Under the pieces are notes generated by a model. The model saw only the letters and a list, made by a program, of their open reading frames with translations, was not told the DNA's origin and searched no databases. Below, one piece after another: positions 32,260 to 61,581 of a DNA stretch of 64,000 nucleotides. The stretch lies in the NCBI GenBank assembly GCA_007375595.1, contig VMEP01000001.1:89274-153273 (forward strand). The letters are read 5' to 3'. The stretch's first letter is position 1. Every line of letters begins with the position of its first letter. The stretch is from Parcubacteria group bacterium LiPW_30. Lineage in GTDB: Bacteria; Patescibacteriota; Minisyncoccia; Phycocordibacterales; VMEP01. The position numbers were made by a program, and so were the translations under genes.

Positions 32260-33717
32260 CTATGGAAATGGGTGTGGGTATGGATTTAATTTGAAATTTT
32301 CAACACCTTTATAGCGGGCGAATTGTTTTAACCTGTCACTATCAAAAGTTCCGTATTTTTCTACCAGAAACAACGGAAAGCAAAAAGGTATAAACGACTG
32401 TGCCACACGAAACCCTAATTTATCCATTGCTTTATTTTTAGGAAAATAAATAAGAGGGGTATACTCGCTCCCCAACTTAGTAAAAATATTTTCTAAAACA
32501 TTTGTTTCATCTTCTTCCCCTAAGGCGTTCGCGCTATTATTCACATAATTAAACACATCACCAGAAACAAACCACCTAAAAAGTTTAACCCACTCCTCTC
32601 CTTGCCACATTGTTATTCTTTTCTCTCTATCGATATCACTTATAAATGGGGTAAAATTACCAACCTCAACCTCTGCTTGATCCCTATCAAGATTAGCGAC
32701 ACATTGCTCGGCTTCTTCTAGCGCTTTTCTGACTGCAGAATGCAAATCAACACCAGCACCACCGGATACAGCAAAAGATTTTTTATTTAAATTATTCTTT
32801 CCAACGACGACACACGCTGAAGGGATACCTATGTTTGTTGTTGTTTCTAAAACATAAGTATCAACACCAATACTCTTAAAATCTTTTACGTACAAAAACA
32901 AATCCTCGGGTAATGATTCATTTATGATAACCTTTGGCGCAATTTGCGTTAACCAATGCACCAAAAAAGAATCTCTCTCTACGTATTCCAATATTGAATT
33001 TTTAATAACATCCTCCTTGGAAAAACCGCCAGCCGAACCGCTGGTGGTTGGATTCATGGTTATTATATTTTTTTTGCGCCTCCATGAAGTAAGACTTCTT
33101 GGTATCAAAGCAACTTCGTTGGTTAAAAAATTAAACCCCTTAACCCATTCTATCGCCTGATCATCATCTACTCTCAACTCCTTAAACAGCTCTCTTTGTT
33201 GTGGTAAAAATCTATGATATACAGGCGGGTAAAAAATATTTTTATATTTTATTTTTAATTCATTAAAAGAGCCCACAATAAAATCGTTATTTTCATCATA
33301 AAGCCCTGAGACAGCTCTTTCTATTAATTCCCCTATTGCCTTGGAGAGAGCCATGTCGCTATTCTTGTGGTGCCCAGTACTTTTTACTAAAAATTCTTCT
33401 CCGTCTAAAAGGCGCGTGGTATATATATTTATATTCCAATAAGAAGCAGTGTTCATTTTGCTTACCGCAGACAACATTTTGTTTCTATTCAAGAAATTAA
33501 TAATTATATCGTATGCGGGGCTATGGTCGTGAGGATATTTAATATAAACATCCTTAAGCCATGAAAACTTTAAAAATAAAGACAATAGAAAAATATGAAA
33601 TCTATCGCCAACACCAAGCGGTAATTTCCACGGTCCATTTTTTTGCATTTGGCGAATATCGTCAACGTAATCTTTCGCTAAAATATATCCAGGTGAATTA
33701 AATAAATTGTTTTCCAT
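32260..33717 (-). CDS. YcaO-domain protein (azoline-forming cyclodehydratase / backbone-amide activating enzyme family); second Met (MENNLF) taken as start
   Basis: YcaO ATP-binding signature GHHKNSDMALSKAIGELIERA; TSGSAGG motif; Pro-rich C-terminus NPYPHPFP characteristic of TOMM cyclodehydratases. Confidence 0.75.
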   Translation of the reverse strand: MENNLFNSPGYILAKDYVDDIRQMQKNGPWKLPLGVGDRFHIFLLSLFLKFSWLKDVYIKYPHDHSPAYDIIINFLNRNKMLSAVSKMNTASYWNINIYTTRLLDGEEFLVKSTGHHKNSDMALSKAIGELIERAVSGLYDENNDFIVGSFNELKIKYKNIFYPPVYHRFLPQQRELFKELRVDDDQAIEWVKGFNFLTNEVALIPRSLTSWRRKKNIITMNPTTSGSAGGFSKEDVIKNSILEYVERDSFLVHWLTQIAPKVIINESLPEDLFLYVKDFKSIGVDTYVLETTTNIGIPSACVVVGKNNLNKKSFAVSGGAGVDLHSAVRKALEEAEQCVANLDRDQAEVEVGNFTPFISDIDREKRITMWQGEEWVKLFRWFVSGDVFNYVNNSANALGEEDETNVLENIFTKLGSEYTPLIYFPKNKAMDKLGFRVAQSFIPFCFPLFLVEKYGTFDSDRLKQFARYKGVENFKLNPYPHPFP

Positions 33718-33721
33718 AAAA

Positions 33722-34453
33722 CTAAAAAGAAATCGTATAAACCAAACTCTCACTACTACCATCTAATTTAAGTAGACCCTCTACCCTTATATCACTGGAC
33801 GACCCATTTGGGATAAAAGTTAAACCATTCTCAACCCCAGACAACAATATATTCTGCCCAATATGCCCTGCTTCTAATAAAATATAACGATAACCCCGAC
33901 TTCCGTATTTACGTGTTGCACGATCAAAAACACTAGCTAGGCAAATCATTCCAAAACCGCCAACCGCCCATTTATCACTTTGATAGGAAAGTATATCGTC
34001 AGAAGAAAAACTTCTTCGCTCAACCAACTCAAGACTATGAGTTTGAAGTTCGTAATGATATACGCCAGATTCTAATTCTTCTATATTTTTAAACAAAATT
34101 AAATATAACTCGACTGAATACCTTGCTCCACCAGAAGGTGCTGTTCTATGAATTGTTCCGTCTTTTCTTTTTATTTCTCCGCAAGCACACTTTAATATTT
34201 TTGATATTTTCTCTAAAGTAACAAAATTGTCTGGTAACGATTTGCGGTCGGACGATCTTTTTTGTAAAAGATTAAATAATTCAGTATTAAAATTATCACT
34301 AAGTTTTATCGGGTCAAAAAATGGAATTTTCTTATACTCTGTGGTTTTCCAACTTATCGGCCACTTTGTTATATCAGCAGGGATTTTTATTAAACCACCC
34401 TCTGTTTTATCTTTAGTTGACCTGTGAAAAAATTTATATAAAAACGGTCTCAT
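33722..34453 (-). CDS. SagB-type (McbC-like) FMN-dependent dehydrogenase, nitroreductase superfamily
   Basis: 243 aa; nitroreductase RRSxR-like KRSSDRK and SagB signature …RTAPSGGARYSVELYLIL…; 4 bp upstream of the ycaO start. Confidence 0.7.
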   Translation of the reverse strand: MRPFLYKFFHRSTKDKTEGGLIKIPADITKWPISWKTTEYKKIPFFDPIKLSDNFNTELFNLLQKRSSDRKSLPDNFVTLEKISKILKCACGEIKRKDGTIHRTAPSGGARYSVELYLILFKNIEELESGVYHYELQTHSLELVERRSFSSDDILSYQSDKWAVGGFGMICLASVFDRATRKYGSRGYRYILLEAGHIGQNILLSGVENGLTFIPNGSSSDIRVEGLLKLDGSSESLVYTISF

Positions 34454-44116: not shown

Positions 44117-47100
44117 CTAAATAATCAGTTTTAAAACAAAAGATATGTCATCAAAAGAAACTTCTTCTCCGATAACAACATCAGAAAAGTATATCCCTTT
44201 AATACTCACGGCTTGAGAAATTTCTGCCTGCCATTTTTCTACAAAACTTTTTCCGTTCTCGTTTGTTGAAATACTAAGTGAGACAATATCTTTAGGGTTT
44301 AATTTTTCTTTCTTTCTTAAGTCTTGGACTGCGCGAATGAATTCACGGACCTGTCCTTCTTCTTTTAACTCGGGGGTTATTGTGACATCAAACAACACAG
44401 ACCCTTTTTCAAGAGAAGCGTTGTGTGTAATTTTTTTCACGTTTACTTCCTCCTTCACCAGCTCTTCAAAAAATTCACCATCTTGCTCGGATACTTCTAA
44501 CAAAGAGAGTGGTTGGCGAACCTTAATCCCGTGAACAGCGCGCGCGGCAAGGGCTTGTTCAACTATTCTTCTAGTATTCAACATTTCCCCAATTAAATCT
44601 TTGTTTGACCTATTTATCTTCGGCCATTTCTCAAGATGAACACTTTCTTTATCTTTTTCAGTTTTAATTTTTTGATACAAATCTTCCGCAACAAAAGGCA
44701 TGAATGGCGCAAGAATCTTAGAGAGTTCTTTCAAAACAAATAATGTTGTTTCAAGTCCTGCTTTTTTATCTTCTACATTTTCGTCCCTAAACCATCCTTC
44801 GGATGGTCGGGCGTTCAAACCATTTGAGTTTGAATTAGCCTTAAAACGTTCTCGCGAACGGCGAATGTACCAAGTCGATAAATCTTCAATAAAATCCCCG
44901 ATTGGTCTTGTTGCCTTATCAATCTCATATTTATCCATACCATCCGACACTGCTTCCTTAAGTTCGTTTAATCTCGCGATAATCCACTTATCCAAAACAT
45001 TTTTACTTTCATCTTTAGCTTCTACTTTTTCAGCATACAGCGCGTAAAAAGAATAAACATTCTCGAGGCGCACAACAATTTTTCTGTATACATCAGAAAC
45101 CGAAGCTTCAGACAAACTCAAATCCTCGGCCCGCATAATTGGAGACGAGAGTAAATAATATCGAAGTGAATCTGCTCCGTATTTTTCAATAACCTTAATT
45201 GGATCAGGGTAATTCTTTAAGCGCTTTGATATTTTTTTGCCGTCTTCGGCCATCACCATCCCGTTAACAATAACGTTTTTATATGGAGCCTTCCCAAAAA
45301 GAGCCGTGCTCAAAATCAAAAGCGTATAAAACCAACCACGCGTTTGATCTAACCCTTCCGCGATAAAATCTGCAGGGAAATTATTTTTAAATTCTTTTTC
45401 GTTCTCAAAAGGATAGTGGAATTGCGCAAATGGCATTGACCCTGATTCAAACCAACAATCAAACACTTCCAAAACACGTGTCCTTTCTCCCCCGCATTCA
45501 CAATTTAGTTTTACATCATCAATATATGGACGATGAAAATCAAGGTTTCCGTCTTTATTGCGAGGGATTGATTCGAAAATCATTTTTTCAAACTCCGCAT
45601 TACTTAAGAAATCGTCCCCTCTCTCTTTTTTCATCTTTACTGCACTTTCCACTGAAAGCCCTAATGCCATAGTAAAAAGCAACCACGCCGTGTATTCATG
45701 TGTAACAATAAGAACATTTTTCCCTTTATGCTCTTTTTCAATATTTGAAACAGCTTCAAAAACCCTTTTCTTTAAGTCAGCTAAATTCTCCCCGTTTGGA
45801 GCCCTCTTTGTAAATTTTTCTTCTAAAGAAGAGAAGTAGCCGTGATATTCCTCGTTGGTCTTTCCATTAAAATCACCAACATTTATTTCAGCCAGTCGTG
45901 GATCAAAGATAACACCAGAATTTTGTAGACCAAGTTCTTCGGCAAGAATAGACGCTGTTTGTCTTGTGCGCATAAGTGGCGAGGAAACAATGAGGTCAAT
46001 TTTTTCTTTTTTTAATTTCTGCGCGCTTTCCTTAACTTGCTCTCTCCCTTTTTCAGTTAGGTTGTCTATGTCTGTCTCTTTTGTTTTTGGAGTTCTTGTT
46101 ACATTACTTTCTGCTTGCCCATGTCTTATTACAAAATAATTATTAGAAGACGCTTTTGCCAATTTTTTAATATCAGAAAGCGAACCAACAACAAACGGTT
46201 TTTCGCATTTATTACATTTCCAAACAGGAATCGGCGCTCCCCAAAAACGAGCTCGAGAAACTGCCCAGTCGCGAGCGCCTTCAAGCCACTTACCAAAACG
46301 GTTAGTACCGATTGATTCTGGAACCCAATGTATCTTTTTATTTTCTTCAACGAGTTTATCTCTAAATTTACTAACCTCAACAAACCAAGAACTTGAAGCA
46401 TAATTTAAAAGTGGCGTCTCACATCGCCAACAAAGCGGATATGAGTGAACTATCTTTTCTTTAGAGAAGAGTGTTCCTTTTTGCGCAAGATATTTAATTA
46501 TTTCTATATCCGCCGATTGAGTATCTCCTTTTTGTTTAACATATTTACCAGCGAAATCTCTTACCTCGGGTTTAAATTGTCCACTCATTGAAACGTGTTG
46601 AACAAAAGGGAGTTTTTCTTTGATTCCAAGTTCCATGTCTTCTGCACCAAAAGCCGGAGCTTCATGAGCAATACCAGTACCGCTTTCCGCCGTCACAAAA
46701 TCGGCATGATAAACCTTCCAGCCATTCTCGTGGTTCTTTATTGTTTTATCGTTTAGATAATAATCAAAAACCGGAATATAAGCTTTACCAACTAACTCAG
46801 AGCCTTTGAATTCTTTTTCTATTTTATATGGAGTATTAAAAACAAATTCTAATCTTTCTTTTGCAAGAACGTATTTTACTCCCTCCGTCTCAACCTTCAC
46901 ATAATCAATATCTTTATTCACCGCAATCGCGACGTTCCCTGGCAATGTCCAAGGAGTTGTTGTCCAAGCTAAAAGGTAAGTTCCTGGCTCATCGGCGAGT
47001 TCAAATTTTGCCGTCACCGAAATGTCAGTCAGATCGGTATAACCTTCCGCAACCTCTGATTGCGCAAGTGGTGTCTCGCAACGTGGACAAACATACATAA

Positions 47101-47623
47101 TTTTATGTCCTTCGTAGACAAGGCCTTTTTCATGAAGAGTTTTAAATGCCCACCAAATAGATTCTGTGTATGTCGCATCCATTGTTTTATAGGCATGCTC
47201 CATATCAACAAAACGTCCTAATCTTGGAACAACTTCTTTCCAATTTGAATCAAAACGAAGAACCGCTTTTTTTGCCGACTCGTTAAACTTATCAACTCCA
47301 TACTCTTCAATATCTTTTTTATGTCCAAGATTTAACTCTTGTTCAATTAAGTTTTCTATCGGAAGACCATGACAATCCCAACCCCACTGTCTGCGTACAA
47401 AATTACCACGCATCGTTTGGTAACGTGGAATAGCGTCTTTTATTGTCCCGGCTAAAATATGTCCGTAGTGTGGCTCCCCTGTTGCGAAGGGTGGTCCATC
47501 GTAAAATACGAATTTATCATCCGCTTTCTGTTCTAGCGTTTTCTCAAAAATTTTATTTTCTCTCCAGAATTTAAGTATCCTTTTTTCATTCAGAGAAACC
47601 TGTGTATCTTTTTGTTCTTCCAT
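44117..47623 (-). CDS. ileS: isoleucyl-tRNA synthetase carrying an inserted histidine-phosphatase (PGM/RHG-family) domain
   Basis: 1168 aa; HIGH (PHYGHILAG), KMSKS (KISKRLKN), CP1 editing region; ~195-aa insert (aa ~494-690) with RHG motif FVIRHGQAESN…SSPLMRTRQTA…IVTHEYT. Confidence 0.9.
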   Translation of the reverse strand: MEEQKDTQVSLNEKRILKFWRENKIFEKTLEQKADDKFVFYDGPPFATGEPHYGHILAGTIKDAIPRYQTMRGNFVRRQWGWDCHGLPIENLIEQELNLGHKKDIEEYGVDKFNESAKKAVLRFDSNWKEVVPRLGRFVDMEHAYKTMDATYTESIWWAFKTLHEKGLVYEGHKIMYVCPRCETPLAQSEVAEGYTDLTDISVTAKFELADEPGTYLLAWTTTPWTLPGNVAIAVNKDIDYVKVETEGVKYVLAKERLEFVFNTPYKIEKEFKGSELVGKAYIPVFDYYLNDKTIKNHENGWKVYHADFVTAESGTGIAHEAPAFGAEDMELGIKEKLPFVQHVSMSGQFKPEVRDFAGKYVKQKGDTQSADIEIIKYLAQKGTLFSKEKIVHSYPLCWRCETPLLNYASSSWFVEVSKFRDKLVEENKKIHWVPESIGTNRFGKWLEGARDWAVSRARFWGAPIPVWKCNKCEKPFVVGSLSDIKKLAKASSNNYFVIRHGQAESNVTRTPKTKETDIDNLTEKGREQVKESAQKLKKEKIDLIVSSPLMRTRQTASILAEELGLQNSGVIFDPRLAEINVGDFNGKTNEEYHGYFSSLEEKFTKRAPNGENLADLKKRVFEAVSNIEKEHKGKNVLIVTHEYTAWLLFTMALGLSVESAVKMKKERGDDFLSNAEFEKMIFESIPRNKDGNLDFHRPYIDDVKLNCECGGERTRVLEVFDCWFESGSMPFAQFHYPFENEKEFKNNFPADFIAEGLDQTRGWFYTLLILSTALFGKAPYKNVIVNGMVMAEDGKKISKRLKNYPDPIKVIEKYGADSLRYYLLSSPIMRAEDLSLSEASVSDVYRKIVVRLENVYSFYALYAEKVEAKDESKNVLDKWIIARLNELKEAVSDGMDKYEIDKATRPIGDFIEDLSTWYIRRSRERFKANSNSNGLNARPSEGWFRDENVEDKKAGLETTLFVLKELSKILAPFMPFVAEDLYQKIKTEKDKESVHLEKWPKINRSNKDLIGEMLNTRRIVEQALAARAVHGIKVRQPLSLLEVSEQDGEFFEELVKEEVNVKKITHNASLEKGSVLFDVTITPELKEEGQVREFIRAVQDLRKKEKLNPKDIVSLSISTNENGKSFVEKWQAEISQAVSIKGIYFSDVVIGEEVSFDDISFVLKLII

Positions 47624-49275: not shown

Positions 49276-49701
49276 TTACTTTCCAGAACTACCAAAACCC
49301 TTGCCGCCTCTGTCTGTTTCGCTCAATTCTGAGACTTCAACAAATTCTACTTGTTCAATTTTCTGAATTATCATCTGGGCGACCTTCTGCCCCTTTTCAA
49401 ACTTATATGCTCTGTTGCTTAAATTAACTATTCCAACTTTAACCTCTCCGCGATACCCAGCATCTATAACTCCGCCCAACGTTTTAATTCCATTTTTTAT
49501 AGCAATACCACTTTTATCCCAAATAAGTCCAGCGTATCCGTCTGGAATTTCAAGTGCAATTCCAGTTGGCACTTCTTTCCATTCACCCGAAGCAACCTCT
49601 ATTTCTTCTCGTGAAAGTAGATCAAAAGCCGCATCTCCTTTATATGCGTAAACTGGAACCGGTAAATTTTTATCTAATCTTTTTATTTTTATTTGCATCA
49701 A
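49276..49701 (-). CDS. dut: dUTP diphosphatase
   Basis: 141 aa; dUTPase motifs (…AAFDL…, …GLIWDKSGIAIKNGI…, …DRGGKGFGSSG). Confidence 0.85.
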   Translation of the reverse strand: MMQIKIKRLDKNLPVPVYAYKGDAAFDLLSREEIEVASGEWKEVPTGIALEIPDGYAGLIWDKSGIAIKNGIKTLGGVIDAGYRGEVKVGIVNLSNRAYKFEKGQKVAQMIIQKIEQVEFVEVSELSETDRGGKGFGSSGK

Positions 49702-49815: not shown

Positions 49816-50748
49816 GTGAAATATACCTCAGCTGAAAAACCGCCAGTTGTGGCCTACAAGCCATACCGAGACCGGAAGCCAGACTATCAATTCCGGGACC
49901 TTGCAACCAGCATCATGGAATACGGTGAAATTTCCCACCCACCACAAGGAGAAGAAGCAAAACGCTTGAGTGGAGTGCAGCTCCGCTATCAGATGGAAAA
50001 CGGATTTCCCCTCATGACTGAAAGAAATCTGACCCTTGCGCTTGGGGGGTCGAACGGTGAAATAATCGGAATGACCCACGGCGAACGCACCCTCAACGGC
50101 CTCATGAAATATGGGTGCCCGGAAGTATTCTGGAAAAATTGGGTTACCCCGGAAAAATGCGCCATTTTTGGACTCCCCCCAGGAGATCTTGGTGACGGTT
50201 CGTATGGCCCTCAGTTCGGGAAACCGAAATGCGAAGGTGGTGAATTCAGTCAAATCGAGGCAGCCCTTGCGCTTGCAAAGGCTTTCCCCGATACCAGAAC
50301 CATTCGGATAACAACCTGGCGCTTAGTGGAGCTGCTACTGAATGCCGATCCAAAAAAACGGCGGACGGTGGTTGCTCCGTGTCACGGTGATTTCACAGTC
50401 GTAATCAACCGGGAAAGAAAGACGCTTAAGATCATTCATCGACAGCGCTCTGCTGACCTTCTCGTCGGATGGACAGGCAACGTCACTCAATATGCCTGGA
50501 TGGGTATGGTGTTTGCACACCTCCTTGGTTACACAATGACCGAGCTTGTGCACTACATTGAAGACGCCCATATTTACAAGCGTCAATATGAATCTTTCCG
50601 CGAACTGTTCGCAAACCAAACCAAGCCGTTCCCGACGGTTACCATTGACGAAACTGTCACTGACTACTTCAGTTTTCGTCGCGAACATCTCTTCTTGGGC
50701 AATGACTACGATTGCGGGCCGAAAATGATCATTCCAACCCCCATCTAA
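49816..50748 (+). CDS. thyA: thymidylate synthase family enzyme (ThyA-like, divergent; dUMP-directed by active-site Asn)
   Basis: 310 aa; ThyA core: …ENGFPLMTER…, catalytic VAPCHGDF, …HRQRSADLLVGWTGNVTQYAWM…, …EDAHIYKRQ…; GC ~50%. Confidence 0.7.
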   Translation: MKYTSAEKPPVVAYKPYRDRKPDYQFRDLATSIMEYGEISHPPQGEEAKRLSGVQLRYQMENGFPLMTERNLTLALGGSNGEIIGMTHGERTLNGLMKYGCPEVFWKNWVTPEKCAIFGLPPGDLGDGSYGPQFGKPKCEGGEFSQIEAALALAKAFPDTRTIRITTWRLVELLLNADPKKRRTVVAPCHGDFTVVINRERKTLKIIHRQRSADLLVGWTGNVTQYAWMGMVFAHLLGYTMTELVHYIEDAHIYKRQYESFRELFANQTKPFPTVTIDETVTDYFSFRREHLFLGNDYDCGPKMIIPTPI

Positions 50749-50856
50749 ACGCTTTTCCCTTTCACAAAAATCGCCATTCGTGGCGATTTTATTTTTTGAC
50801 AAAAATTTTATCCCGACATATAAATAACACTAGTAAGAAACTAAGGAGACCTTTTT

Positions 50857-51327
50857 ATGAACAAACCACAAGTAAACATTGCACACGCCGTAACTGAAGA
50901 TTACCGCAAAACTCTAGAGCAAATTATCCGCGACGGAGTATGCCCTTTTTGCGTGGACTTCTGTCAGGGAAACAAGCCGAGGTATCACCCCAACCCAATC
51001 ATCATAGAAACAGATTGGTGGGCAGTAACTAAAAACATGCGACCATACCCTGGAAGCTCACTTCATTTACTTCTGGTGTACAAGAAGCATGTTCTCTATC
51101 CGTGGGAGATAGACCAGAAAGCTTGGGATGATTTGCGAAATGTTATGAAAAAACTCGCAACAGATTATTCCCTCACGCATGGGACTCTCTTCCAGCGCTT
51201 TGGCGATACCGAGTTCACGGGAGCAAGCGTGACCCACTTCCATGGTCAGCTCATCGTCGGTACATCAAGAAACGAAGGGACCGATCCATTGGTTGTCTAT
51301 TGTGGATACAAGGTTCCTGGAAAATGA
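50857..51327 (+). CDS. HIT-superfamily (GalT/Ap4A-phosphorylase branch-like) nucleotidyl transferase/hydrolase
   Basis: 156 aa; N-terminal Cys cluster CPFCVDFC and HxHGQ-type motif VTHFHGQLIV. Confidence 0.45.
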   Translation: MNKPQVNIAHAVTEDYRKTLEQIIRDGVCPFCVDFCQGNKPRYHPNPIIIETDWWAVTKNMRPYPGSSLHLLLVYKKHVLYPWEIDQKAWDDLRNVMKKLATDYSLTHGTLFQRFGDTEFTGASVTHFHGQLIVGTSRNEGTDPLVVYCGYKVPGK

Positions 51328-51338
51328 AAAGAAACCAA

Positions 51339-51370
51339 AAAGGCGATCTTTGCAGATCGCCTTTTTTTAT
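51339..51370 (+). terminator. rho-independent terminator for the thyA-HIT transcript
   Basis: AAAGGCGATCTTTGCAGATCGCCTTTTTTT. Confidence 0.65.
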
Positions 51371-51401
51371 TTTTATAAAAAACAAAGCCCCCGTAGGGGG
51401 C

Positions 51402-52253
51402 TTAAAATGAAACACGGACAACTTTCACTTCGCGGTTTCGAAGAGCCTCACGGCCATTCAAATTAGCGTAGCCGTCTTTAAAGTACACGCTCCGAACACG
51501 TGCCTCTGCAAGCATTTGCGCGCAAGAAACACACGGAAAGACTGTTTGGTAGATATCAGCCCCACGAAGCGAGATGTTTTTTCGCGACGCCGCTGCCGTG
51601 AGTAACGCTCTTTCCGCATGCATGAAAAGAGAACACTCAATCATCTCCCCTGCCTGAAAATTACTCCGGGGATCCCCATTCGCATACTGCTGTTGAGGCG
51701 GTACGCTTTCGTTGAATGCGGCCAAACGCTTCCCATCGCGAGTAACCGCAATGGCTCCAATCTGACGCCAAAAATCAGAACTCCTTTTACTGAGTTCGTC
51801 TGCTTGGCGCAAAAATTTCCGAGCAGCCTCTGACGATGTCACGATAATGTCTTCGTCTGGAGGAAGCTTGGAAAGCGCAGCCATTCCATCCCAACGGAGG
51901 AAGAACGGGATGAAAGTAATGCGTTTGCGGCCGAAAAATCTTTTAGCCACGTAACGCGAAACATCTTCGTCCGGAAGAATAAGTCGCACATCCTTCCGCA
52001 TCGCAAGAGACCTAAGACCGACCGTGTTTACAACTGAAACTAAGTCGAGTGCCGGCGATACCAATCCTTTGGTTTGATTCAACATCATCGCCAAAAGCTT
52101 GGGTTCAACAGCTCTCATGTCACGGGCTATCCCGACAATTGCGTGTGACACACTCGGGTGAAGTAAGTGAAGTTCTTGTGCCCCACTTTCTTCAATAAAA
52201 CGCCGATACCCTTCGTGAAAAACAGGGATGTATGCAACCGCAACGGTCCTCAT
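51402..52253 (-). CDS. fusion of an N-terminal domain of unknown function with a C-terminal cytidine/deoxycytidylate deaminase zinc-binding domain
   Basis: 283 aa; C-terminal CMP/dCMP deaminase motifs …CSLFMHAERALL… and …PCVSCAQML…; start overlaps upstream gene by ATGA. Confidence 0.6.
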   Translation of the reverse strand: MRTVAVAYIPVFHEGYRRFIEESGAQELHLLHPSVSHAIVGIARDMRAVEPKLLAMMLNQTKGLVSPALDLVSVVNTVGLRSLAMRKDVRLILPDEDVSRYVAKRFFGRKRITFIPFFLRWDGMAALSKLPPDEDIIVTSSEAARKFLRQADELSKRSSDFWRQIGAIAVTRDGKRLAAFNESVPPQQQYANGDPRSNFQAGEMIECSLFMHAERALLTAAASRKNISLRGADIYQTVFPCVSCAQMLAEARVRSVYFKDGYANLNGREALRNREVKVVRVSF

Positions 52254-52945
52254 GATTTCGTGCCACTTATTCGAGACAGGAAACCTTCAATGACGCGATG
52301 AAGCTCCTCTGCAAGCTGTGACGCCCCAGTCAGAATCAAGGCGGAAAGCCGTGCCGTGGTCGAGTCATCAGACTGAGGAACCAACCACTCCAGCCGGCCA
52401 CAATGCTTCATCAGGTGGTCGATATGACTCTGATCCACATCTTTGGTCCCCTTCGACATAATGAGGACATCGGGGTGAATTTTTTCGACAAGCTCTTCCA
52501 GTCGTGCCCCCACATCGCGCACAGTCACGAGGTCAACGTGCCTGGTATGCAATAGCATCTCGACACGATCACCAAATGCATCAAACGGCCGAGCAGGTTC
52601 TCCTGGTTTTTGCTTTCGCTGCCGTGTCAATTCGTCAGAGTCGACACCAACCACGAGAAAGTCTCCCGCCGCTTTCGCTTTTTCAAGGTAACGAAAATGA
52701 CCCTTATGCGCCATATCGTATACACCCTGAGTCAGAACAACGACAAACCCTCCTTCCTGCAAATGCCTGACCACGCGAACCAACTCCTCGTGGTCTTGCA
52801 CAAATCGTGTTTCCTGATTCCTTTGGCGGAAATCAAAAAGATTCTTGACGATTCGGGCAAACCTTGTTTTCGGTGATACTTCCATACAAACAGAACCTTC
52901 TAATGGCGTGTTCATTCTAGACTCCTCGGTAAATGGAAAGGTCAA
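52250..52945 (-). CDS. cytidylyltransferase-like nucleotidyltransferase (HldE domain II / TagD family, HxGH motif)
   Basis: 231 aa; …VVVLTQGVYDMAHKGHFRYLEKAKAAGDFLVVGVDSDELTRQRK… aligns to heptose-1-P adenylyltransferase / G3P cytidylyltransferase core. Confidence 0.6.
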   Translation of the reverse strand: MTFPFTEESRMNTPLEGSVCMEVSPKTRFARIVKNLFDFRQRNQETRFVQDHEELVRVVRHLQEGGFVVVLTQGVYDMAHKGHFRYLEKAKAAGDFLVVGVDSDELTRQRKQKPGEPARPFDAFGDRVEMLLHTRHVDLVTVRDVGARLEELVEKIHPDVLIMSKGTKDVDQSHIDHLMKHCGRLEWLVPQSDDSTTARLSALILTGASQLAEELHRVIEGFLSRISGTKS

Positions 52946-53079
52946 ACTGCGTTAATTTATATTCCTTGAGATGCCAAAAGTAAACCCCCTACAAAAAACT
53001 TACTTTACTCCACCCTATTTTCTTTGTTAGTCTAAGCAAAGAAAGTCCTTCCCATATACACAAGAAATGGAGCGTCGAA

Positions 53080-53580
53080 ATGTCAAAACCACAACTTGCC
53101 GTAATTGCAGCAATCGAGGAAAAAACCAGAGCGATGGGTATCAACAACAAACTCCTCTGGAGGATCAGTGGCGACCTTCCAAGGTTCAAGGCGCTAACCG
53201 AAGGTCAGGTAATTATCATGGGGAAAAACACCTACCTCTCCATAGGTAGACCACTCCCAAATCGCCACAATATTGTCGTCAGTAAAACACTCGGGATGGT
53301 TTCGGGGATCGCTGTTGCCCACTACTTTGAGAACGCTATCGCATTTGCGAAAACTCTCAACTCCGAAAAGATATTTTTTATCGGAGGAGGAGAAATTTTC
53401 CGTGCGGCACTCCCGATCGCCGACATGCTTTATCTAACGCTCGTTCGCGACAACGAAGTAAAAGCTGATGCGTTTTTTCCTACCTACGAGAAATCATTCG
53501 TACAGGTCCCTGGTTCAGAAGAATCTCATCTCGACCATAGCCCGCCATTTCGTTATGTAGACTTTGTTCCCCGAAGATAA
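53080..53580 (+). CDS. folA: dihydrofolate reductase
   Basis: 166 aa; …LAVIAAIEEKTRAMGINNKLLWRISGDLPRFKALTEGQVIIMGKNTY… DHFR signature. Confidence 0.85.
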   Translation: MSKPQLAVIAAIEEKTRAMGINNKLLWRISGDLPRFKALTEGQVIIMGKNTYLSIGRPLPNRHNIVVSKTLGMVSGIAVAHYFENAIAFAKTLNSEKIFFIGGGEIFRAALPIADMLYLTLVRDNEVKADAFFPTYEKSFVQVPGSEESHLDHSPPFRYVDFVPRR

Positions 53581-53608: not shown

Positions 53609-53643
53609 AAAAAACCGATCACAGTTGTGATCGGTTTTTTCTA
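53609..53643. terminator. bidirectional terminator between folA and rplK (AAAACCGATCACAGTTGTGATCGGTTTT)
   Basis: Perfect palindromic stem with A/T flanks between convergent genes. Confidence 0.7.
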
Positions 53644-53658
53644 TTAAAGATTTATTTT

Positions 53659-54081
53659 CTATTTAACCTCAATTCCGGCAGAACGAGCGGAACCTTCGAT
53701 TATTTTCATTGCTGCTTCAATATCGTTTGCAGTTAAATCTGGCATTTTCTTTTCAGCAATTTCTTGTAACTGCTGTTTTGTTATTTTTCCAGCTTTTGTA
53801 ACTTTCTGTTTAGCAGCTCCTTTCTCAATACCAGCTGCTTTCAAGATAAGTCCTGTTACTGGAGGTGTCTTAACAACGAAATCAAATGTTCGATCTTCGT
53901 AAACGCGGACAACAACTGAAACTTTTTCTCCAACATTCTCTTTTGTTGCTTCATTAAATTTATTAACGAAATCTCCAATGTTCACTCCGGCCTGACCCAA
54001 GGCAGGTCCTAGTGGTGGCGCAGGTGTTGCTTTACCGGCCGCAATTTGTACTTTTATTTTTTTTGTTATTTTTTTTGCCAT
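53659..54081 (-). CDS. rplK: 50S ribosomal protein L11
   Basis: 140 aa; …[21 protein letters not shown]… L11 signature. Confidence 0.95.
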
Positions 54082-54085
54082 ATAT

Positions 54086-54631
54086 TTATATTTTCTTTAC
54101 CTGAAGGAAATCAAGCTCAACTGGTGTCTCGCGACCGAACATCGAAACCAAAACCTTAACCTTGCCACGTTCGCTATCAACCTCAGAAACCCTCCCTTCA
54201 AGCTCCTTAAATGGGCCGTCGGTGATGGTGACCATTTCACCCTGTGTTAGGGCAATTGTATGCTTCACCGTATCAGATTTCATGCGAGCAAACAACCCAT
54301 CAACTTCTTTTTGATCTAGTGGAACTGGAGTTGTCCCTGCGCCAACGAAACCAGTCACACGTGGAGTGTTGCGAACAACATACCAAGAATCGTCTGTAAC
54401 AACCATATCAACGAGAACATATCCTGGGTAGATTTTCTCTTCGGTCTCAACACGCTTCCCTCCCTTTATCTTTATCTTCTTTTCAACTGGAACAATAATA
54501 TTAAAAATTTTATCTTCCATACCAAGAGACTCCACGCGCTGTTTTAGATTTCGCATAACGGCGTTTTCATATCCTGCATACGTGTGTATTGCGTACCAGT
54601 TTCTATCTAGATTTATTTCTTGCTTAGCCAT
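54086..54631 (-). CDS. nusG: transcription termination/antitermination factor NusG
   Basis: 181 aa; NGN domain ([14 protein letters not shown]) and C-terminal KOW. Confidence 0.9.
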
Positions 54632-54632
54632 G

Positions 54633-54815
54633 TTATTGCAAAATGAAAGTCTTTATCAAAAAAGTAAAACCGAAGTCAAAAGCACCAAGCCCATAGCCGA
54701 CGATTATCGAAATCAAAATAACAACGATGGTAAAAGCAATAGTCTGGGCTTTTGATGGCCAGCTAACATGCTTCATTTCGCCTTGTGTTTCCCTTAAATA
54801 TTCAGTTAATTTCAT
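54633..54815 (-). CDS. secE: preprotein translocase subunit SecE (60 aa; the track's 140-aa ORF is over-extended into the upstream repeat element)
   Basis: [22 protein letters not shown]…single TM…; canonical secE-nusG adjacency. Confidence 0.8.
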
Positions 54816-54916
54816 ACTTTTAGTTAAAAACGCCCCCTCGGGCATTTGCACCACTCTACCTCTTATTCGAAAAAAGGTCAACCTGGCTTTTTTCCCTTTC
54901 AACCTAAGAGCACGGA

Positions 54917-54995
54917 TAATTTTCTGCTGAAAATTTCCTCGAGCTCGCGTCGCCACGCTCGCTAGTCTCTTAAGCTGAAAGGTTGAGTGGTATGT
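54917..54995. repeat. copy of the GGATAATTTTCTGCTGAAAATTTCC element plus CTCGCGTCGCCACGCT box, between a terminator and secE
   Basis: 26-nt identity to copies at 5510-5535/5698-5723/63637-63662; the CGCGTCGCCACGCT box recurs at 15486-15500. Confidence 0.6.
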
Positions 54996-55072
54996 TTCAA
55001 AAAGAAAAGAAACCCAAAAGACAAAAAACAGGGGTGACCCCTGTTTTTTTATCACACCTATTTTCGTCCTTA

Positions 55073-61506: not shown

Positions 61507-61581
61507 TCTTTGTTCTTGGGTGCCTATCGGGATTTGAACCCGAACTGAGAGTTCCACAAACTCTAGTGCTAACCATTACAC
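61507..61581 (-). tRNA. tRNA-His (GTG) with G-1 and encoded CCA
   Basis: Reverse complement folds as cloverleaf: G-1, acceptor GTGCCTA/TAGGCAC, anticodon loop TTGTGGA (GTG), T-arm TCGGG-TTCAAAT-CCCGA, discriminator C then CCA. Confidence 0.8.

Follow-up and report, generated by a model that had tools for sequence, protein, structure and literature searches.

A conserved thymidylate gene module with accessory nucleotide enzymes in Patescibacteria and Solirubrobacterales

A deaminase, a thymidylate synthase (ThyA), and a dihydrofolate reductase (DHFR) together make dTMP from a cytosine deoxynucleotide. The closest described arrangements of such genes are the thyA-folA (td-frd) pairs of bacteria and phages and the phage T4 set of gp56 (dCTPase/dUTPase), Cd, Td, and Frd. 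Here, we analyze a locus in a 64,000-nt stretch of the Parcubacteria group bacterium LiPW_30 genome (contig VMEP01000001.1, positions 89,274 to 153,273 of the forward strand), hereafter the window, whose own numbering is used throughout. Between dut and rplK, the window encodes a divergent ThyA, a HIT-like protein, a cytidylyltransferase-family nucleotidyltransferase (the transferase), a fusion protein that joins a zinc deaminase to an N-terminal domain (the N-domain), and DHFR. On balance, we favor the view that this region is a conserved five-gene cellular dTMP module, one step of which is undescribed and serves to feed or channel cytosine deoxynucleotides. Three of its elements have no family model, a literature search found nothing on this gene combination, and the module is apparently an undescribed variant of the thymidylate operon.

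With the thyA-folA pairs, of which the phage KP15 frd-td and a T5-like pair were seen directly, the module has in common the ThyA fold, the full catalytic set, and an adjacent DHFR, with SHMT, Tmk, and dut nearby in relatives. However, the module ThyA belongs to a separate clade with ~25% identity to Escherichia coli ThyA, an N-terminal extension, two insertions, an R127T replacement, and loss of R21, and the module always adds the HIT protein, the cytidylyltransferase, and the fusion deaminase. The logic that we propose to be shared with the T4 set, whose gp56 annotation was seen, is the conversion of dCTP to a monophosphate, deamination, methylation, and recycling of folate. Unlike this phage set, the module is cellular and contains no MazG- or dUTPase-type dCTPase; nucleotidyltransferase and HIT protein would take over that step, if it exists.

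The accessory proteins also depart from their described counterparts. The transferase is like ECT, CCT, TagD, and HldE domain II/HldC in its fold and in its HxGH, RKG..RP, RxVD, and ISTT-like motifs, but it falls under every NCBIfam equivalog cut-off and its context is thymidylate rather than lipid, teichoic acid, or heptose synthesis. In contrast to Hint/Fhit, Ap4A phosphorylase (Rv2613c), and GalT, the HIT protein of the module is a single 156-aa domain with no Pfam HIT match, a 45-aa N-terminal helical extension, and Q or H at the third motif position. The fusion has the HAE and PCxxC zinc site of dCMP deaminases (T4 Cd, S-TIM5, ComEB), but GYNG is replaced, and neither solved structures nor phage enzymes show its predicted pseudo-cytidylyltransferase domain. 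The anti-phage zinc dCTP deaminase has a different N-terminal domain and matches the fusion in the core alone.

Conservation of the five genes and identity of the synthase

A motif scan for the N-domain in one genome per species confirmed 246 loci, the best 80 of which span many classes of Patescibacteria as well as Solirubrobacterales, among the latter the cultured Solirubrobacter soli and a Conexibacter strain. A hidden Markov model (HMM) scan placed all five genes side by side in each of the 70 loci with enough flank (33 from Patescibacteria and 37 from Solirubrobacterales/Actinomycetota). An independent scan of metagenome contigs that started from the HIT-like protein yielded 402 loci, with the full set in 27 of the 28 that span 9 kb or more and the HIT-like gene no more than 700 nt from ThyA in 75 of 75. 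Six contigs with homologues of the fusion or the HIT-like protein (35-77% identity) likewise carry the same genes together, often along with SHMT, dut, and Tmk. The HIT-like family was seen solely in the context of the ThyA/DHFR module.

This linkage is maintained under different gene orders. Solirubrobacterales have one co-directional operon, ThyA-DHFR-HIT-transferase-fusion. In Patescibacteria, the genes are arranged in two pairs, one in which the transferase precedes the fusion and one in which ThyA precedes HIT. The median transferase/deaminase junction is a 4-nt overlap (-4) in 38 Actinomycetota loci and a gap of +7.5 nt in 40 Patescibacteria loci. SHMT neighbors the module in 24/33 Patescibacteria loci and dut in 16/33, and Tmk is also found there; dut is adjacent in 3/37 Actinomycetota loci, whose flanks share no further conserved neighbor. 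The first-pass annotation, made from the sequence of the window, had singled out the HIT-like, nucleotidyltransferase, and fusion genes as additions to the routine dut/deaminase/ThyA/DHFR set. They are indeed locked to ThyA/DHFR in every related locus examined, a context that speaks against conserved unrelated functions of the HIT-like protein and the transferase. In the closest relative (locus L001, 7371-10381), DHFR and dut are absent beside the module, and the GC content at third codon positions (GC3) ranges from 0.31 in the transferase to 0.69 in ThyA. Another locus (L008, 1-14483) shows an enlarged deoxynucleotide cluster with NUDIX, dut, two P-loop kinases, a YfbR-like HD 5'-deoxynucleotidase, and a T4-type dNMP kinase (DNMK).

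The window ThyA matches Pfam Thymidylat_synt (PF00303) with 138.4 bits (gathering threshold, 24.3), its residues 25-304 covering model positions 2-260 of 266. BLASTP aligns the whole protein with E. coli ThyA (2e-22), and its best matches among solved structures are all thymidylate synthases. The label "divergent" that it had been given is fair, since its scores lie under the NCBIfam equivalog cut-offs (TIGR03284, 96.9 versus 108.35; NF002497, 112.5 versus 327). Residues C146, H147, R166, S167, D169, N177, H207, Y209, E58, W80, W83, and Y94 and the C-terminal tail are all kept, and these catalytic and folate-site residues are invariant or nearly so across 84 module copies.

Because T4 gp42 (dCMP hydroxymethylase) and E. 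coli ThyA are both in phrog_160, PHROGs were unusable for separating synthases from hydroxymethylases, and residues and a tree were used instead. In gp42, positions 177 and 147 are Asp and Thr, and the synthase C-terminal tail is missing; in SPO1 gp29, position 147 is Asn, and neither W80 nor W83 is present. In a neighbor-joining tree, a simple method applied here to a small reference set with these two hydroxymethylases, the module ThyAs are monophyletic (100/100) and sister to E. coli ThyA plus three phage synthases, and both hydroxymethylases fall outside (100/100). BLASTP detected no similarity between the window ThyA and gp42. The phylogeny proposed in the first-pass annotation as a check thus groups the protein with true synthases, and its identification as a dCMP/dUMP hydroxymethylase was rejected on N177, H147, W80/W83, the tail, the tree, and BLASTP.

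Besides a thymidylate synthase-type C-terminal tail, the clade is marked by the N-terminal extension (20 aa in the window protein), the two insertions, and the disappearance of two of the four phosphate-binding arginines (R21, R126', R127', and R166). At position 127, T stands in place of R in 84/84 loci and 119/120 database homologues; R21 has given way to K, Q, P, or I across the clade, with P in the window protein. R166 and R126 are kept. From the mutagenesis literature, we take R166 and R126 to be essential and R21 and R127 to be dispensable, and the annotated Td of phage KP15 has G at position 127; the loss of R21 and R127 is therefore no argument against synthase activity. The thymidylate synthase reaction alone oxidizes folate by drawing on the reducing power of tetrahydrofolate, which explains the fixed DHFR partner. 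It is well supported that the module ThyA works reductively, as a true thymidylate synthase that uses methylene-tetrahydrofolate; dTMP and dihydrofolate as its products have indirect support from the invariable DHFR neighbor.

The transferase, the HIT-like protein, and the fusion

The transferase matches Pfam CTP_transf_like (PF01467) with 49.7 bits (threshold, 21) and carries an intact HxGH (H60-K-G-H63) together with RKG..RP, RxVD, and an ISTT-like (S/T)TT..R motif. Residues H60, G62, H63, R90-K91, R99-P100, D118, and T176 are invariant among 86 orthologues. The closest matches of its family profile are human ethanolamine-phosphate cytidylyltransferase (7.5e-30) and then HldC (3e-27), and its scores against the HldE domain II and TagD equivalogs remain far from the NCBIfam cut-offs (rfaE_dom_II, 76.8 versus 181.5; g3p_cytidyltrns, 41.8 versus 165.4). 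At least one cytidylyltransferase of the CTP:phosphoethanolamine type accepts dCTP (PMC2784872).

The HIT-like protein matches no Pfam or NCBIfam family, with PF01230 below threshold; in some relatives this family gives weak or faint precomputed matches. An HMM assignment, proposed earlier for this protein and the nucleotidyltransferase alike, thus placed the latter in CTP_transf_like and the former in no Pfam family. Structures were predicted for the two dark domains, this protein and the fusion N-domain. The 156-aa protein has the HIT fold in a single domain. Its CxxC/His zinc pattern is intact, as is the nucleophilic histidine; the family shows no variation at H127 and H129, and the third position of the HxHxH/Q motif is Q or H. 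HFHGQ is present, yet the two-half GalT architecture (~350 aa, H-x-H-x-Q) is not. From their conserved residues, both accessory enzymes, transferase and HIT protein, look active. A second HIT paralogue of ~200 aa (CPFC ... H-x-H-x-N/H) lies beside the first in 16/33 Patescibacteria modules (e.g., L012, 5268-5891; L024, 6894-7550; L042, 2682-3371), and loci L008 and L084 encode a longer form (~300 aa) that consists of two HIT-like halves; the window module has one HIT gene only.

In the fusion, Pfam dCMP_cyt_deam_1 (PF00383) covers residues 143-258 only (53.3 bits; threshold, 25). H212, E214, C241, and C244 are invariant, and a family-specific GDPRSNF motif is present. The position of GYNG, which we take to be the canonical allosteric motif of dCMP deaminases, is degenerate (A-x-N-x-[HS]-x-P). 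The score against the ComEB equivalog stays below its cut-off (36.4 versus 219.45), and the closest solved relatives of the domain are the dCMP deaminases of phage S-TIM5 and Streptococcus mutans. That this zinc deaminase converts a cytosine deoxynucleotide to its uracil form is well supported. With the anti-phage dCTP deaminase it shares a match in the zinc core only (NCBIfam, 43.8 versus 400; positions 430-491 of 630 in the PADLOC dCTPase model), and a defense system was rejected as the PADLOC match is confined to that core.

Residues 1-140 of the fusion match no Pfam or NCBIfam family, and the N-domain has no sequence match among solved structures. The predicted structure assigns it a degenerate cytidylyltransferase (nucleotidyltransferase) fold. 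The conserved AYIPVLHEGY occupies the position of GxFDxxHxGH in the cytidylyltransferase family, so that HxGH has become HxGY here (H13-E-G-Y16), and the intact motif is missing. Invariant N-domain residues are R47, PDEDVS, and FLRWD, which, judging from the topology, follow strands 4 and 5, the usual nucleotide-binding positions of the fold. An exhaustive profile search found the N-domain in 591 clusters, essentially always N-terminal to a deaminase.

A proposed deoxynucleotide route and its rivals

Enzymes of the cytidylyltransferase type use CTP to form CDP-X, and HIT enzymes split NMP-X by way of a nucleotidyl-histidine. In the route that we envisage, the transferase and the HIT enzyme of the module would act on the same nucleotides and in the same pathway. 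The transferase would convert (d)CTP and a phosphorylated acceptor X to (d)CDP-X and pyrophosphate; the cytosine would then be deaminated by the fusion, whose degenerate cytidylyltransferase domain would keep it attached to the transferase or its product; and the HIT enzyme, via a covalent nucleotidyl-histidine, would release a monophosphate (dCMP or dUMP) for ThyA. That DHFR recycles the dihydrofolate is well supported. The net result would be a dCTP-to-dUMP entry route, equivalent in effect to T4 dCTPase and dCMP deaminase combined or to Dcd together with Dut. The pairing of the HIT and ThyA genes hints at release after deamination, i.e., dCDP-X to dUDP-X to dUMP. Alternatively, the N-domain may serve as a dCTP/dTTP sensor in place of the degenerate GYNG site. 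Conjugates of this kind, dCDP-choline and dCDP-ethanolamine, are present in cells (PMC10505902).

A more specific claim, which we advance as tentative and rather doubtful, is that transferase, fusion, arginine-depleted ThyA, and HIT protein together form an undescribed dCTP-to-dTMP route, in which the deoxynucleotide is carried as a (d)NDP-X conjugate through at least deamination, and that this route is shared by Patescibacteria and Solirubrobacterales and has moved as a block.

Several points weigh against such a feeding or channeling step. None of the analyses points to a particular acceptor X, to the nucleotide that the transferase uses, or to a substrate of the HIT enzyme. Reaching dCMP by way of two enzymes seems overly elaborate when one pyrophosphatase would suffice. 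In Patescibacteria, the HIT gene pairs with ThyA and not with the transferase, contrary to what a simple feeder predicts. Comparison of the N-domain with the module transferase gives an hhalign probability of 6%, i.e., no detectable sequence relation; for this reason, the idea that the two dock as a heterodimer draws only on the analogy of dimeric cytidylyltransferases, and a tandem duplication of the transferase as the source of the N-domain was not upheld. As for the origin of the module copy, discussed below, gene-by-gene identities to the closest relative, L001 (ThyA, 82%; deaminase, 77%; HIT, 59%; transferase, 56%; argS, 58%), show no clear recent transfer.

Two other readings also give the accessory proteins or the N-domain a part in deoxynucleotide conversion. 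It is unlikely that the fusion is a dCTP (or dual dCMP/dCTP) deaminase whose N-domain grips the triphosphate and which passes dUTP to the neighboring dUTPase, leaving regulatory or other roles to HIT protein and transferase. The HxG(H/Y) region of the N-domain fold binds nucleotide phosphates, dut adjoins the module here and in about half of the Patescibacteria loci, the anti-phage dCTP deaminase has a core similar to that of the module deaminase, and zinc deaminases acting on dCTP are known (PMC12184417). However, dut is inconstant, above all in Actinomycetota, and lies outside the GC-elevated block described below; the resemblance to the defense enzyme is the shared zinc core with its low score; and two strictly conserved accessory enzymes are left unexplained. 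Thymidylate synthesis on a carrier, where the transferase puts a nucleotidyl or phospho-X handle on the cytosine deoxynucleotide, deaminase and ThyA act on the conjugate (dCDP-X to dUDP-X to dTDP-X), and HIT releases dTMP or dTDP, would make sense of gene pairs that read load-convert (transferase and deaminase) and convert-unload (ThyA and HIT), of a ThyA clade deprived of two of its four phosphate-binding arginines (R127 to T; R21 to K/Q/P/I), and of a deaminase that has acquired a nucleotide-binding fold and no longer shows the canonical GYNG. We nevertheless consider it quite improbable: the arginines presumed essential (R166 and R126) are those that are kept and the lost pair is presumed dispensable, KP15 Td also has G at 127, and the remainder of the dUMP and folate site is canonical.

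The HIT-like protein and the transferase might instead be unrelated housekeeping enzymes, of cofactor or envelope metabolism for instance, next to an ordinary thyA-folA-deaminase set. No substrate can be assigned to either protein, and cytidylyltransferase-family and HIT enzymes serve many pathways; yet the adjacency holds in two phyla despite different gene orders and flanks, the transferase gene overlaps the start of the deaminase, the HIT-like family is tied to the module, and six protein families give the Actinomycetota copies the same nearest relatives, implying block transfer. We judge this explanation very unlikely. Least credible of all is the suggestion of the first-pass annotation that the region resembles a phage-style base hypermodification cassette, where a ThyA-like hydroxymethylase makes 5-hydroxymethyl pyrimidine nucleotides that are elaborated with the help of transferase and HIT protein. 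In its favor are the divergence of ThyA below the equivalog cut-offs, the insertion before its catalytic Cys, located at the same place as in T4 gp42 and SPO1 gp29, and the foreign-looking GC block. But residues and tree are those of a synthase, with N177 rather than Asp; DHFR is an obligatory neighbor, and ThyA is also tied to SHMT, Tmk, and dut; and no modification gene (glycosyl- or aminoacyl-transferase, kinase, aminotransferase, or pyridoxal phosphate enzyme) is present. Two scans of viral contigs found none that encodes the N-domain or the HIT-like protein. In phage genomes, tblastn gave no match to the HIT-like protein, ThyA matches of at most 28% identity, and, for the fusion, matches of the deaminase core alone, to phage dCMP deaminases (35-37% identity over residues 151-281). 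The module lies in cellular genomes, among ribosomal, tRNA-synthetase, and folate genes.

Layout, base composition, and origin of the locus

The five open reading frames and their domains are where the first-pass annotation had placed them, as the ORF list, Pfam, and NCBIfam agree, and every motif it quoted (PCH, QRSADL, DAHIY, CPFC, HFHGQ, HxGH, HAE, and PCxxC) was found (Table 1). Translational coupling of the nucleotidyltransferase/deaminase pair also stands, with an ATGA common to the stop and the start.

Table 1. Coordinates of the module genes, their domains, and the bordering features in the window
Feature	Position	Strand	Basis or remark
ThyA-clade thymidylate synthase, 310 aa	49816-50748	+	Pfam PF00303, 138 bits; BLASTP; residue table; tree
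HIT-fold protein, 156 aa	50857-51327	+	CPFC...H78...H127-F-H129-G-Q131; adjoins ThyA in relatives
Fusion protein (N-domain + zinc deaminase), 283 aa	51402-52253	-	Open reading frame
Fusion N-domain, residues 1-128	51870-52253	-	Predicted degenerate HIGH-type cytidylyl/adenylyltransferase fold
Fusion dCMP-deaminase-type zinc domain, residues 143-283	51402-51827	-	Pfam PF00383, 53.3 bits; HAE + PCxxC
Cytidylyltransferase-family nucleotidyltransferase	52250-52945	-	Pfam PF01467, 49.7 bits; true start probably near 52885
ATGA overlap of nucleotidyltransferase stop and deaminase start	52250-52253	-	Read from the sequence
Dihydrofolate reductase (DHFR), 166 aa	53080-53580	+	Pfam PF00186, 139 bits
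dut (dUTPase)	49276-49701	-	NCBIfam dut, 147 bits, above cut-off; GC3 0.27
rplK	53659-54081	-	Borders the region on the DHFR side
Perfect 15-nt inverted repeat with flanking A and T runs	53609-53640		Between convergent folA and rplK

The inverted repeat between folA and rplK has the appearance of a terminator acting in both directions. The HIT-like and deaminase genes, which converge, are separated by an AT-rich spacer of 74 nt (51328-51401) that contains several sub-threshold look-alikes of Rfam sRNAs and leaders and is most likely a shared terminator region. An Rfam search at a permissive threshold returned no riboswitch or leader, the sub-threshold sRNA look-alikes lying over terminator hairpins only.

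The GC content of the region, 0.480, is the highest in the window, compared with a window mean of 0.392 (standard deviation among segments of equal size, 0.028). GC3 is 0.47-0.53 in exactly the five genes and 0.23-0.39 in dut, argS, ileS, rplK, nusG, and a SIMPL gene. The GC elevation reported in the first-pass annotation is thus borne out, with sharp borders that enclose the five genes and leave out dut, a functionally related neighbor but an inconstant member of the module. The excess over the flanks in this genome (+0.099) is the largest among 74 loci, most of which are within 0.03.

Such a deviant composition with sharp borders is what a mobile island would show, and this half of the earlier idea of an acquired island stands. 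A new insertion fits less well: rplK is found within 6 kb of the module in 27/40 Patescibacteria loci, so the site beside secE-nusG-rplK is old, and some lineages have the module between rplA and rplJ. The neighbors include no integrase, the flanks bear no meaningful repeats, and the nearest tRNA is at 61518. Given the conserved site beside rplK and the lack of a tRNA, integrase, or repeat, replacement by a related copy at the old site fits better than a new insertion, and a higher-GC relative probably supplied the copy that took the place of the module here, at the ancestral position. This donor was sought and not identified. The claim that an insertion separated rplK from the rest of the ribosomal cluster is right as to the separation, with rplJ-rplL (5861-6801, minus strand) 47 kb from secE-nusG-rplK (53659-55055, minus strand), but the age of the site argues against insertion as its cause. 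Two rplA queries detected no rplA anywhere in the window.

For all six protein families, the Actinomycetota copies (L016-L088) are nearest to the same two Patescibacteria-type loci, L065 and L006, one from a Saccharimonadales metagenome-assembled genome and the other on an unassigned metagenome contig. The Actinomycetota copies are also far less diverse than those of Patescibacteria. The shared nearest relatives of the six families imply transfer of the module as a block, which suggests movement of the whole module, probably from Patescibacteria to Actinomycetota.

Elsewhere in the window, ileS (44117-47623, minus strand; 1168 aa) has a His_Phos_1 (histidine-phosphatase) domain inserted in the middle of its catalytic domain, as in L001, L004, and L010. 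A YcaO cyclodehydratase-family gene (32260-33762, minus strand) may form a peptide-modification cluster with its neighbors, and a 1134-aa open reading frame without Pfam match (10368-13772, minus strand) lies in surroundings of moderately raised GC (0.42-0.44).

Thymidylate synthesis is among the best-mapped metabolic pathways, yet in several hundred lineages the ThyA/DHFR pair is invariably accompanied by a cytidylyltransferase, a fusion deaminase, and a HIT protein. As cultured Saccharibacteria grow on Actinomycetota hosts, the apparent passage of the module as a block between Saccharimonadales-like bacteria and Actinomycetota is also of interest. Since the module is present in culturable Solirubrobacter and Conexibacter strains, its function is directly testable. 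If the accessory enzymes feed or channel cytosine deoxynucleotides, they would fill the poorly defined dCMP-source step of the dCMP-deaminase route and account for the way in which Patescibacteria, with their reduced genomes, keep dCTP and dTTP in balance; the complete conjugate route, if true, would be a new branch of deoxypyrimidine metabolism.

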